Notes under the pieces: generated by a model
Databases searched by the model: none
What the model was told of the DNA's origin: nothing
What the model saw: only the letters and a program-made list of their open reading frames with translations
NCBI RefSeq assembly: GCF_035594765.1
Contig: NW_026943825.1
Coordinates: forward strand, 7,803,802-7,867,801
DNA: 64,000 bases
Reading direction: 5' to 3'
DNA from: Anolis carolinensis
Lineage: Eukaryota
Made by a program: the position numbers and the translations under genes
Shown: positions 39,227-54,763 of the stretch, one piece after another
Layout of the letters: each line of letters opens with the position of its first letter
How positions within the stretch are numbered: position 1 is the first letter of the stretch

Positions 39227-40069
39227 ATGTCCATCCCGGCATCGCTGTTCCTGGTGGTGGTTTGGACCGTCTACCCCCGGGGCTCGTCCCCCACCAGCAT
39301 GGGACACCCTCTGCCCACTCCGCTCAAGGAGAACCACGTCTTCCCTTCGGCCCCAGCACCGCATGGAGAAGAGGCCTCCATGTCTACACCGCTCAAGGTG
39401 TATCTGGATGACGACTACGACTACGACGATGACAACGTCCAGACCGAACGGGTCCCATCCCCGATGCCTCCGCGCTGCAACTACAGCCACTGCCACCACC
39501 TCCAAGTCCCGTGCGCCGAGTTGAGCAAGGCCAGCCGGTGCTTGTGCCCGGGGATCACGGGCCCGTTGGTGGCCCCGGAGGCCCCCCGCTTGCAGACCGT
39601 CCACGTCAGCGAAGCCGGGGCCAGCTTGCATTGGTGTGCCCCGTCTTCCATCGTGGAAGCCTACCAGTTGCAGTACCAACTAATCGGCGACAACGACGAC
39701 GTCCACGTCGGACCCGCTCTTGGCAGCACTTTCCGCATGGCGTCCATTTCGGGTTTGTTGCCCAACCGGGAGTATCTCTTCTGTGTGGTGGCTTTTAACC
39801 TGGTTGGCGCCAGCCCGACCGACGACGGCTTCCAGGAACGTGGACCATGTCGTCTCGTCCGGACTCCTTCCCGACAGACGTCCTACGCTTACGTCGCCGT
39901 CGGCGTGGCTTGCACCCTCATCGTCGCGGTCGTCTCCGTCTTGGCTTGGTATTTTTGCCACCGCAGGAGGAAATATTCTCACCACGGCTCGTTGCACAAC
40001 ATCCTGGACGGCGGGTTGGGTATCACCGGGGCAGCCAACAGCTCTTTCCAAAGCGAGGAGCAGCTGTGA
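39227..40069 (+). CDS. LRRN4CL: LRRN4 C-terminal-like protein, 280 aa (signal peptide, Cys-rich region, FN3, TM, short tail)
   Basis: CNYSHCHHLQVPC..L...CLCPG, LHWCAPSS and REYLFCVVAFNLVGAS FN3 motifs; TM YVAVGVACTLIVAVVSVLAW; acceptor at 39221 just before the ATG; position between BSCL2 and UBXN1. Confidence 0.9.
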   Translation: MSIPASLFLVVVWTVYPRGSSPTSMGHPLPTPLKENHVFPSAPAPHGEEASMSTPLKVYLDDDYDYDDDNVQTERVPSPMPPRCNYSHCHHLQVPCAELSKASRCLCPGITGPLVAPEAPRLQTVHVSEAGASLHWCAPSSIVEAYQLQYQLIGDNDDVHVGPALGSTFRMASISGLLPNREYLFCVVAFNLVGASPTDDGFQERGPCRLVRTPSRQTSYAYVAVGVACTLIVAVVSVLAWYFCHRRRKYSHHGSLHNILDGGLGITGAANSSFQSEEQL

Positions 40070-40144
40070 AAGGACCCGCTTGTGGTTTTCTTGAGACTCA
40101 ATTCTCAAGGCTGGATGGTAATCTGCCATGGAGATGGTACCAAC

Positions 40145-41200
40145 CAGTCTAACAGCTGAGTTACCTGTGTGCCATTACATCAGAGGTTCTCCACTTTCCT
40201 AATGCTGCGACCCCTTGATATGGTTCCTCATGTTGTAGTGACCCCCAACCATAAATTTATTTTACGGTTTTTCAGTCTAACAGCTGAGTTACCTGTGTGC
40301 CATTACACCAGTGGTTCTTAACCTTCCTCTACTGAAGAAATTCCAGGAAGCAGGTCGAGTCTAAACTCTTTCAAGAAAACCAACTATATGTTGTATACGT
40401 TTTCTAGGTATCATTTTGTATTTTCAATCTTGAAGACATCTTGTTTATGGCTTTGAACCCTTGATACGGTTCCTCATGTTGTGTTGACCCCCAACCATAA
40501 AATTATTTTATGGTTTTTCAGTCTAACAGCTGAGTTACCTGTGTGCTATTACATCAGTGGTTCTCCACCTTCCTAATGCCGTGACCCCTTCGCACGGTTC
40601 CTCATGTTGTGGTGACCCCCAACCATACATTTATTTTACGGTTTTTCAGTCTAATAGCTGAGTTACCCGTGTGCCATTACATCAGTGCTTCTCAACCTTC
40701 CTTCATCAGTGCTTCTCAACCCCTTGGCTCAGTTCCTCATGTTGTGGTGACCCCATCCATAAAATTATTTTATGTTTTTCAGTCTAACAGCTGAGTTACC
40801 TGTGTGCCATTACATTAGTGGTTCTTAATCTTCCTAATGCCACGACCCCTTGATACGGTTCCTCATGTTGTGGTGACCCCCAACCATAAAATTATTTTAG
40901 GGTTTTTCAGTCTAACAGCTGAGTTACCTGTGTGCCATTACATATGTGATGACCCCCAACCATGAAATTATTTTACGGTTTTCAGTCTAACAGCTGAGTT
41001 ACCCGTGTGCCATTACATCAGTGCTTCTCAACCTTCCTAATGCCATGACCCCTTGACACAGTTCCTCATGCTGTGCTGACCCCCTACCCTAAAATTGTTT
41101 TCGTTTCTACTTCACAACTGTCATTTTGCTCCCGTCATGAATTGCAAATCGTAAATATCCGATAAATATCCGAATTGCAAATCGTAAATATTCGATATGT
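40145..41200. repeat. Tandem amplification (~125 bp units) of a SPIN/URR1-like hAT terminus plus flanking sequence
   Basis: CAGTGGTTCTCAACCTTCCTAATGCC..GACCCCTT..GTTCCTCATGTTGTGGTGACCCCCAACCATAAAATTATTTT, each preceded by CAGTCTAACAGCTGAGTTACC. Confidence 0.75.
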
Positions 41201-41621
41201 GGGATGTATTTATTATTTATTTTCATTCACTGGGCCAAATTTGGCACAAATACGCCCAAATTAGAATACTGGCGGGGTTGGGTGGGGGGTTGATTTTGTC
41301 ATTTGGGAGTTGTAGTTGCTGGGATTTATAGTTCACCTACAATCAAAGAGCATTCTGAACTCTACCAACGATGAAATCGAACCAATCTTTTACAACCAGA
41401 ACTCCCATGACTAAGACAGAAATACTGGAAGGATGTGGTGGACATTCGCCTTGAGTTTGGGAGTTGTAGTTCATCTGACTCCAAACAATGATGGATCTGG
41501 ACCAAACTTGGCATGGATACTCAATATGCCCAAATGTGGACACTGGTGGAGTTTGGGGAAAATAGACCTTGGCATTTGGGAGTTGTAGTTGCTGGGATTT
41601 ATAGTTCACTTACAATCAAAA

Positions 41622-42621
41622 GTAAAGTTTCCCCCTTAACATTAAGTCCAGTCTCCATGTCTAAGTTGAAGTCATTGTCCATAGACACCTCCAAGGTCAT
41701 GTGGCCACTGGCATGACTGCATGGAGTGCCATTACCTTCCCACCAGAGCAGTATCTATTGATCTACTCACATTGGCATGTTTTCGAACTGCTAGGTTGGC
41801 AGAAGCTGGGGCTAACAGCGGGTGCTCACTCCGCTCCCCGTATTCAAGTTACCGACCTGTCAGTCTGCAAGTTTAGCAGCTTAGCCACCAAGGAAAGACC
41901 GTTACCTTCCCACCGGAGCGGTACCTATTGATCTACTCACATTGGCATGTTTTCGAACTCCTAGGTTGGCAGAAACTGGGGCTAACAGCGGGTGCTCACT
42001 CCGCTCCCTGGATTCAAACCGCCGATCTGTCAGTCTGCAAGTTCAGCAGCTTAGCCACCAAGGAAAGACCGTTACCTTCTCACCAAAGCGGTACCTATTG
42101 ATCTACTCACATTGGCATGTTTTCGAACTCCTAGGTTGGCAGAAACTGGGGCTAACAGCGGGTGCTCACTCCGCTCCCTGGATTCAAACCGCCGATCTGT
42201 CAGTCTGCAAGTTCAGCAGCTTAGCCACCAAGGAAAGACTGTTACCTTCCCACCGGAGCGGTACCTATTGATCTACTCACATTGGCATGTTTTCGAACTC
42301 CTAGGTTGGCAGAAGCTGGGGCTAACAGCGGGTGCTCACTCCGCTCCCCGTGTTCAAACCGCCGACCTGTCAGTCCGCAAGTTCAGCAGCTTAGCCACCA
42401 AGGAAAGACCGTTACCTTCTCACCAAAGCGGTACCTATTGATCTACTCACATTGGCATGTTTTCGAACTCCTAGGTTGGCAGAAACTGGGGCTAACAGCG
42501 GGTGCTCACTCCGCTCCCTGTGTTCAAACCGCCGACCTGTCAGTCCGCAAGTTCAGCAGCTTAGCCACCAAGGAAAGACCGTTACCTTCCCACCGGAGCG
42601 GTAGCTATTGATCTACTCACA
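41622..42621 (-). repeat. Sauria SINE with its 5' part tandemly amplified (170 bp period, about 5 units)
   Basis: ORFs at 41942, 42112 and 42282 recur every 170 bp; SINE tail at ~41625. Confidence 0.85.
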
Positions 42622-42898
42622 TTAATTAATATATGGAACAAAAATAAAACCCCGAACTATGATTGTGTGATCAAGTATTTGCTTTGGTTTCCTACCAAAC
42701 TTTAATGAGCTCTGAAATAGGGCAGCGTTCTCACTCACAAACGGAGTTTCTGTTGGCCGTCAGCCCAGGCTGGGGTCATAAACAGGCCGCCGAGCTGCGA
42801 TCTGAAATTTTTTTTTCCCAGATAGGGTTGGGAACACAAATAAAAATTACTATATCTTGATGCAGTCCTTTCTCTCTTTGTTTCGCACCCTGCCGTGC

Positions 42899-53225: not shown

Positions 53226-53229
53226 CTAT

Positions 53230-54276
53230 TATTGTTATTATTATTATTACAGTAGAGTCTCATTTATCCAACACTTGCTTTTCCAACGTTCTGGATTATC
53301 CAACGATTTTTTTAAATTCTGCCGGCCCGTTTATGTTGGATAAGTGAGACTATACTGTATTATTATTACAGTAGATTCTCACTTATCCAAGCTAAACAAA
53401 TGATTGTGACTTTATTTTATGCCTTTTTAATTTTCATTTGCGTGTTTTTCGGTACAGTAGAGTCTCACTTATCCAAGCCTCGCTTATCCAAGTTTCTGGA
53501 TAATCCAAGCCATTTTTGTAGTCAATGTTTTCAAAATATCGTGATATTTTGGTACTAAATTCGTAAATACAGTCATTACAACATAACATTATTGCGTATT
53601 GAACTACTTTTTCTGTCAAATTTGTTGTATAACCTGATGTTTTGGTGCTTAATTTGTAAAATCATAACCTAATTTGATGTTTAATAGGCTTTTCCTTAAT
53701 CCCTCCTTATTATCCAAGATATTCGCTTATCCAACGTTCTGCCGGCCCGTTTAGCTTGGATAAGTGAGACTCTACTGTACTTATATTGATAATAATATTA
53801 TATTGATAAGTCTCACTTATCCAACATAAACAGGCCGGGAGGATAAGTGAATATGTTGGATAATAAGAAGGGATTTAGGAAAAGCCAATTAAACATCAAA
53901 TTAGGTAATCGTTATACAAATTAAGCATTAAAACATCATATTATACAACAAATTTGACAGAAAAAGTAGTTCAATGCTCAGTAATGCTATGATGGAATTA
54001 CAGTAGAGTCTCACTTATCCAACACTGGCTTATCCAAGGTTCTGGATTATCCAATGCATTTTGGTAGTCAATGTTTTCAATATATCGTGATATTTTGGTG
54101 CTAAAGGCTTTAATCCCTTCTTATTATCCAAGATATTCGCTTATCCAAGCTTCTGCCGGCCTGTTTAGCTTGGATAAGTGAGACTCTACTGTATTTGTTA
54201 TTATTGTATGTTTGTTTTGTATTTGTAAGCTGCCCCGAGTCTCCCTGGGGAGATGGAGGCCGGGTATAAAAATAAA

Positions 54277-54318
<42 letters not shown>

Positions 54319-54460
54319 CGGGTCGGCAGAACCTTGGCTGAGTGAATATCTTGGATAATAAGGAGGGATTAAGGAAAAGCCTATTAAACATCAAATTAGG
54401 TTATGATTTTACAAATTAAGCACCAAAGCATCATGTTATAAGTGAGATGGTACTGTATTG
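53230..54460. mobile_element. Cluster of mariner-type MITEs
   Basis: Several CAGTAGAGTCTCACTTATCCAA TIRs; complete copy 53455-53777. Confidence 0.8.
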
Positions 54461-54707
54461 TTAAGCAGAAGCTGGATGGCCATCTGTTGGGAGGGCTTTG
54501 ATTGTGTCTCCCTGAATGACAGAATGGGGTTGGAGTGGATGGCCTTTGTGATCTCTCCCAACTCTTAAGATTCTAAGGCTGGATGGCCATCTCTCGGGAG
54601 AGCTCAAACTGTGTCTTCCTTCATCACACTTTCAAACCAGGAACAGAAACATTTTTTTTTACATAATGTCATTTTGTCTGTTTCTCTTGCAGAGAGGCCA
54701 GGAGACC

Positions 54708-54763
54708 ATGGAGGCCACGGCCTTGGAGAGTCTCATTGAGATGGGCTTCCCCCAGAACAGAGC
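54708..54763 (+). CDS. UBXN1: UBXN1 first coding exon (MEATALESLIEMGFPQNRA)
   Basis: Start of the UBA domain, matching human MAELTALESLIEMGFP; ACCATGG; donor GC|GTGAGT. Confidence 0.93.

Follow-up and report, generated by a model that had tools for sequence, protein, structure and literature searches.

A 64,000-nucleotide stretch of the Anolis carolinensis genome (C16:7,803,802-7,867,801, on a contig of 17.1 Mb), referred to below as the window and numbered from its first letter, encodes a ZnT1-like member of the SLC30 family on its minus strand. The gene has two exons (45412-42899; 393 amino acids) and lies between an LRRN4CL-like gene and UBXN1. The available evidence describes an expressed, spliced sister of ZnT1 (SLC30A1) that lacks the H-D-H-D zinc site, is likely derived from the first or second round of whole-genome duplication (1R/2R), and likely serves as a non-transporting protomer or scaffold; we give this description, taken as a whole, an even chance of being correct. 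The parts of the gene are as follows.

45413-45627, minus strand: 5' untranslated part, taken from contigs of spliced runs with 5' ends at 45540, 45613, and 45627 (contigs cannot prove the true start)
45603-45627, no strand assigned: two metal response element (MRE) cores, separated by 18 bp, at the 5' end of the contigs from the spliced runs (TGCRCNC, which we take to be the MRE core motif)
44893-45412, minus strand: coding part of exon 1, transmembrane helices (TM) 1 to 4, 173 codons plus 1 nucleotide
43561-44892, minus strand: single phase-1 GT-AG intron of 1332 nucleotides, containing a 54-bp tandem array at 43786-44437
42899-43560, minus strand: coding part of exon 2, with TM5, the Cys-rich extracellular loop, TM6, the cytosolic domain, the C-terminal YETTV, and the stop codon
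42683-42898, minus strand: 3' untranslated part, with ATTAAA near 42706

The loss of the transport site is the main feature of this protein and was absent from the first-pass annotation of this DNA. Human ZnT1 binds zinc through H43, D47, H251, and D255, and the D47A/D255A, D47N/D255N, and H43A/H251A replacements are reported to abolish efflux (PMC11051671). All four ligands are present in 29 of 29 ZnT1 sequences but in none of the 38 members of the new clade, which were aligned as one full-length model per species (32 reptiles and 6 fishes), leaving aside alternative models, fragments, and further cluster members. Eleven of these proteins retain no ligand, 22 retain one, four retain two, and a single one retains three; D47, H251, and D255 are missing from all 32 reptile members. 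The Anolis site reads H/G/D/A, with H43 kept and Gly at D47 in TM2 (which also has Ser at D40) and with Asp at H251 and Ala at D255 in TM5, whose register is taken from an alignment anchored at a conserved LG.

This loss of metal-pathway residues is selective, and structural residues are retained. Among 59 positions that never vary in ZnT1 and show at least 80% conservation across 119 outgroup proteins, those lost are mainly polar residues of the pathway (D40, D47, N85, N127, N244, H251, and D255), along with a C-terminal Cys cluster that is lost in reptiles only, whereas S34, G73, R76, D317, Q345, P348, W375, G411, and T416, which belong to the helix packing and the cytosolic domain, are found in 38 of 38 members. 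The Cys-rich extracellular TM5-TM6 loop retains C276, C282, C286, and C311 in 92-97% of the 38 proteins and is shortened in two rays. The TM4-TM5 loop contains 0 to 4 His residues, compared with 7 to 10 in three ZnT1 rows, and H370 is mostly lost in reptile members. All but one of the 38 proteins end in x-T-x-[VIL], a PDZ-type motif by sequence. This pattern suggests that the ZnT1-like protein probably has no Zn transport activity of its own.

A possible, though clearly less probable, alternative is an ancient paralogue that remains active as a transporter or channel through a rebuilt site, either for a different substrate or with low affinity. In its favour, the six helices and the cytosolic domain are all kept, and E25 (32 of 32 reptiles), H43 (21 of 32), and D317 (38 of 38) persist; D40 is replaced by Cys in 26 of the 38 members, and anoles have Asp at position 251. 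Single ligand swaps are reported to redirect ZnT10 to Mn (PMC7949119), and H43D and H43N are reported to leave ZnT1 active (PMC11549101). However, the lost ligands have given way to Gly, Ala, Met, Pro, or Arg, varying between lineages, with no common new site visible, and the pathway Asn residues and the His-rich loop have been lost as well.

Transcript data show the gene in its spliced form. In three of four runs, drawn from three studies, contigs cross the 43560/44893 junction (CT..AC) in joined form; the runs were taken as RNA by guess, and the joined contigs have the form of the predicted splice. The fourth run (X4) contains unspliced contigs only. Because the intron is present and spliced, a retrocopy is ruled out, as the first-pass annotation had argued from a single intron placed as in ZnT1. 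Both this intron and that of the canonical Anolis ZnT1 gene at C1:30.45 Mb are phase 1 and lie in the TM4-TM5 loop, which aligns too poorly for an exact match of positions to be fixed. A pseudogene or an assembly artefact is ruled out by the open frame and by the existence of relatives.

The MRE pair stands out within the window, which contains 22 MRE cores against 29 expected in 64 kb and no other close pair; such a pair occurs in 0.66% of 5000 resampled 500-bp regions. Found post hoc, it is a weak hint that the gene might be controlled by MTF-1. That factor is reported to activate ZnT1 via upstream MREs and to repress Zip10 via a downstream MRE (PMC3124522), so that control of either sign is possible.

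The A. carolinensis contigs carry nine differences in exon 2 (42957-43475), seven non-synonymous and two synonymous against a site ratio of 2.79; they belong mostly to one second haplotype, and none is listed in the coding part of exon 1. This 7:2 count would fit an ancient ohnologue that decays slowly under relaxed selection and has no important present function, as would the long branches, an A. carolinensis extracellular loop 11 residues shorter than that of A. sagrei, and the several vertebrate lineages without matches. Such decay is nevertheless unlikely, given the open full-length frames of 38 aligned proteins from sharks to snakes, the selective retention of the structural residues, the four extracellular Cys, and the C-terminal motif, and the spliced transcripts in three studies.

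The phylogeny supports the new clade as the sister of ZnT1 specifically, with ZnT10 outside. The most careful tree comprised 42 rows and 395 columns under LG+C20, with 200 bootstrap trees; it included two ZnT10 rows and eight outgroup rows, seven of them unnamed and taken as invertebrate from their sequences. With two cyclostome rows and Arapaima left out of the count, every one of the 200 bootstrap trees has a branch that sets all 12 new-clade rows to one side, and the 11 rows left without the reedfish have support of 96/88. ZnT1, the new clade, and the cyclostomes are split from ZnT10 and the outgroup at 100/100. The third member of the ZnT1/ZnT10 subfamily proposed in the first-pass annotation therefore keeps its place in the subfamily but is better described as the sister of ZnT1. 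Two Thr residues appear to be shared derived characters: one directly after H43, in four of five new-clade lineages, and one at position -2 from the C terminus, in five of five, compared with 0 of 29 ZnT1 sequences in each case.

Approximately unbiased (AU) tests were run in IQ-TREE; some constrained trees came from fast searches and are possibly 13-22 log-likelihood units below the best. These tests reject a grouping of the reptile copy and sauropsid ZnT1 (p 3e-6 under LG, 6e-4 under C20), which disposes of the nesting within squamate SLC30A1 that had been named as fatal to the idea of an ancient paralogue. Also rejected are the reptile copy with amniote ZnT1 (p 7e-4 and 4e-4 under LG and C20), the new clade with ZnT10 (p 0.004 and 0.002), ZnT1 with ZnT10 alone (p <0.01 in both models), and, under LG only, the shark copy with shark ZnT1 (p 9e-7) and fully independent origins (p 1e-4).

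Degenerate ZnT1 copies have also arisen elsewhere. A ZnT1-like protein of Arapaima gigas (P0095) is long-branched and degenerate, with a Q-D-H-A site, and stays in ray-finned ZnT1, which argues against simple long-branch attraction; its loss of the transport site is parallel and independent. Another degenerate ZnT1 duplicate, the Logan protein P0152, is likewise nested in ray-finned ZnT1, and Pleurodeles waltl P0168, a shortened, long-branched ZnT1-type protein with intact TM5 ligands, groups with tetrapod ZnT1. The Arapaima protein, the Pleurodeles protein, and five Logan fragments are placed inside ZnT1 and were ruled out as clade members. That the whole clade consists of recent or lineage-specific ZnT1 duplicates, degenerated separately and clustered by long-branch attraction or composition, is very unlikely: several rows are indeed long-branched and compositionally biased, independent degenerate copies such as that of Arapaima exist, ZnT1 is weakly paraphyletic in one tree, and an alternative position of the reedfish is not rejected, but the AU rejections, the two shared Thr residues, the retained intron, and the location in a segment paralogous to that of ZnT1 all argue against it.

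The genes around ZnT1 (C1:30.45 Mb) and the ZnT1-like gene (C16:7.85 Mb) have paralogues at both loci. On C1 and C16, respectively, estrogen-related receptor (ERR) family genes with near-identical DNA-binding exons are found at 33.86 and 7.20 Mb, MARK kinases at 36.02 and 6.31 Mb, and B56 subunits at 30.86 and 3.88 Mb; each of the three families has a further copy at C1:331-356 Mb. The ERR and MARK pairs were expected from the paralogous families on human 1q and 11q cited in the first-pass annotation. Searches for ELM2 and G-gamma found no usable paralogue pair near ZnT1 (two of five families sought). The families were picked from the human paralogon, and the result is thus a prediction confirmed in this genome rather than an unbiased count. 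The paralogues at both loci support a 1R/2R ohnologue, and the ZnT1-like gene probably goes back to one of these genome duplications, in either round; the gene duplication itself very likely predates the split of sharks and bony fishes. Trees, AU tests, and flanking families support the earlier suggestion of an ancient unnamed paralogue on a paralogous segment.

The search for relatives combined three word-seeded runs with an exhaustive HMMER run over 50%-identity representatives. Relatives are found in reptiles (lizards, an amphisbaenian, snakes, and turtles) and in the fishes Heptranchias, Scyliorhinus, Narcine, Pristis, Protopterus, and Erpetoichthys. Mammals, birds, crocodilians, amphibians, coelacanth, gar, and teleosts contribute no clade member to the best 150 of 8014 matches, the best 120 of 505, or a screen of 268 proteins; this absence concerns annotated proteins at limited depth and does not demonstrate gene loss (names were looked up for 20 of the 150 representatives). 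The screen, in which clade profiles were applied to the 268 retrieved proteins, added no member outside reptiles, sharks and rays, lungfish, and reedfish; four rows that look non-vertebrate had marginally higher scores with the clade profiles. The first-pass annotation had described the gene as lost in mammals. Birds, crocodilians, amphibians, coelacanth, and teleosts yielded no matches either, so a loss confined to mammals is improbable. Narcine has ZnT1 as well as the ZnT1-like copy. Among ten species with both genes, seven carry them on records of different chromosome-scale length and two geckos on records of identical length; the tenth involves a short scaffold. One protein labelled Lampetra planeri (P0348) is the sister of stickleback ZnT1 (99) and is probably a mislabelled or contaminating record.

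The predicted fold is that of a cation diffusion facilitator (CDF). PF01545 (Cation_efflux) matches the protein with 59.2 bits against a cut-off of 26.6, an ESM Atlas search returned Cation_efflux clusters alone, and an AlphaFold2 model (predicted local distance difference test [pLDDT] score, 78.7) shows six helices and a cytosolic domain, with human ZnT1 as its best Foldseek match (E 1e-18). A predicted complex with Anolis ZnT1 scores 0.75, compared with 0.01 for the best of three controls, with agreement between runs in at least 65% of contacts and a partner pLDDT of 71; 51 of 78 solved pairs reach the corresponding mark, as do 2 of 108 mismatched pairs (in eukaryotes, 39 of 65 and 2 of 126). 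At the 46 residues of the predicted interface, identity to the ZnT1 consensus is 62%, compared with 37% at 225 other core positions, and 0 of 2000 permutations gave a value as high. The TM3 and cytosolic-domain interface is predicted to be compatible with ZnT1.

The loss of the site ligands, the retained dimer surface, and the precedent of ZnT6 together lead to the view of the protein as a non-transporting protomer or scaffold, a role for which we see roughly balanced chances. The protein might dimerise with ZnT1 or with itself, and its protomer would then contribute no transport site to the dimer. The Thr-type PDZ motif could set the location of the dimer or the amount of active ZnT1 at the membrane, in the way that ZnT6 serves ZnT5. 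A bolder version is doubtful: that the protein has been a transport-dead ZnT1 subunit since before sharks and bony fishes split, that the heterodimer redirects or dampens ZnT1 through the PDZ motif, that zinc controls the gene through the MRE pair, and that the gene was lost separately in mammals, in birds and crocodilians, in amphibians, and in teleosts.

Several observations weigh against an ancient, functional, transport-null sister of ZnT1. Fish members retain up to three ligands (H-T-H-D in Pristis), with the cytosolic site in six of six, and may still carry metal. The small 7:2 sample looks neutral and leaves purifying selection unsupported, and the ZnT1-like proteins of two anoles are 72.7% identical, compared with 89.8% for ZnT1, indicating fast evolution. 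In the complex test, 10 of 12 close cousins pass through memorisation by the predictor, and structures of ZnT1 homodimers have been solved; the complex score therefore shows likeness or a compatible surface, not binding. The conservation of the predicted interface fits a homodimer equally well, and buried residues are conserved anyway. In two geckos (P0019/P0278 and P0017/P0319), the records that carry the ZnT1-like gene and ZnT1 are equally long, which probably reflects chromosome fusion. The reedfish probably belongs to the new clade, but its membership is not secured, as grouping it with ray-finned ZnT1 has an AU p of 0.07 (LG only). ZnT1 is weakly paraphyletic in the 42-row tree (81/89) and monophyletic in two quicker trees, and AU tests do not reject its monophyly (p 0.73 and 0.19). 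Lamprey and hagfish proteins with an intact transport site join the new clade (93/98), and excluding them gives p 0.17 (LG) and 0.044 (C20); this grouping may be artefactual or, if genuine, would point to 1R. The paraphyly of ZnT1 and the position of the cyclostomes therefore leave root and timing unsure, and of the 2R ohnologue proposed in the first-pass annotation, the origin in 1R/2R is supported by the paralogon and the AU tests but the dating to 2R is not.

The neighbouring genes follow the order given in the first-pass annotation, BSCL2 (+), LRRN4CL (+), the ZnT1-like gene (-), and UBXN1 (+), confirmed by matches to PF06775, PF00041, PF01545, and a UBA domain.

14686-14895 and 17382-17600, plus strand: first two identified coding exons of BSCL2 (seipin; PF06775)
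39227-40069, plus strand: single-exon open reading frame with an fn3 domain and a TM (PF00041)
54708-54763, plus strand: first coding exon of UBXN1 (start of UBA; ATG at 54708), matching PDB 1whc with E 0.019

The open reading frame at 39227-40069 has no named match and is presumably LRRN4CL, judging from its architecture and position. The UBX exon of UBXN1 lies 4 kb past the end of the window, and a G-gamma exon lies 3 kb ahead of its start; the human order is GNG3-BSCL2-LRRN4CL-UBXN1, with no SLC30 gene known between them. The ZnT1-like gene is not a misplaced true ZnT1, as the canonical gene has its own locus. ZnT10-type exons are found at C1:35.67 Mb, and a second ZnT10-like exon 1, with Thr/His instead of Asn/Asp at the TM2 site, lies 11 kb from SLC30A10 (C1:35,681,074-35,681,436); it may be another degenerate SLC30 gene, produced by tandem duplication. 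Tandem arrays occur around and inside the ZnT1-like gene at 41732-42623 (170 bp), 43786-44437 (54 bp), 47924-50608 (about 161 bp), and 50959-53220 (106-322 bp). The window also contains LINE-like (long interspersed nuclear element-like) fragments at about 6300-8300, 19100-20200, and 36700-38400 and a run of 155 N's at 33303-33457.

These proteins add to the vertebrate SLC30 family an unrecognised lineage whose members are labelled ZnT1 or ZnT1-like in databases, the Anolis and Pogona proteins bearing the plain SLC30A1 name; such labels can mislead studies of zinc or expression in reptiles. While lost ohnologues are familiar, this one stands out in that the transport site was lost long ago throughout the clade and the dimerising and anchoring parts were retained. 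A natural transport-site-null ZnT1 with the dimer surface, the extracellular loop, and the PDZ motif could serve as a tool for finding out which functions of ZnT1, among them synaptic anchoring and the interactions with calcium channels and Raf-1, depend on zinc transport.

Among known systems, ZnT1 is the closest in sequence and fold. It is the best human match of both exons (E 8e-20 for exon 1 and 1e-28 for exon 2, compared with only 6e-14 and 4e-12 for ZnT10), and it shares the two-exon structure with a phase-1 intron in the TM4-TM5 loop. It also shares the Cys-rich TM5-TM6 extracellular loop, described as ZnT1-specific (PMC11549101), and a PDZ-type C terminus, which in ZnT1 is reported as a class I PDZ motif (PMC3975337). 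In contrast to ZnT1, the ZnT1-like protein lacks H-D-H-D, has a short, His-poor TM4-TM5 loop and Thr for Ser at -2, evolves faster, and is encoded on another chromosome; in its reptile members, the C-terminal Cys cluster is missing too, as is H370 in most of them. The different locus and the rejected nesting with sauropsid ZnT1 rule out an SLC30A1 orthologue. ZnT10 (SLC30A10) belongs to the same ZnT1/ZnT10 subgroup and also has an altered transport site, but it keeps N-D-H-D and transports Mn, has no Cys-rich loop, and is placed outside ZnT1 plus the new clade. The absence of N-D-H-D from the new clade and the rejected grouping with ZnT10 rule out an SLC30A10 orthologue.

The A. carolinensis RefSeq protein XP_008123138.2 is identical to the ZnT1-like protein (393 amino acids, 100% identity). 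It is one of several automatic predictions labelled "SLC30A1-like" or "zinc transporter 1-like"; such models carry ZnT1 or ZnT1-like labels without recognition as a separate lineage. No published description of this lineage was found in the literature searched, a scope that did not extend to subscription papers, database gene trees, and supplements. The label SLC30A11 appears in print for TMEM163 (PMC12068594).

ZnT6 (SLC30A6) offers the nearest functional parallel. It has the CDF fold with two transport-site ligands missing and is described as the putative auxiliary protomer of ZnT5-ZnT6, and ZnT1 is reported to heterodimerise with other ZnTs and to scaffold the calcium-channel beta subunit and Raf-1 (PMC7949119, PMC5666860). 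By analogy, the ZnT1-like protein most likely works as ZnT6 does. It is not a ZnT6 orthologue, since it best matches ZnT1 and has the ZnT1-only loop, and it differs from ZnT6 in its independent origin within the plasma-membrane subgroup and in having a partner that is predicted only. Should it prove to be an auxiliary subunit, the plasma-membrane branch of the family would have evolved the ZnT5-ZnT6 arrangement a second time.

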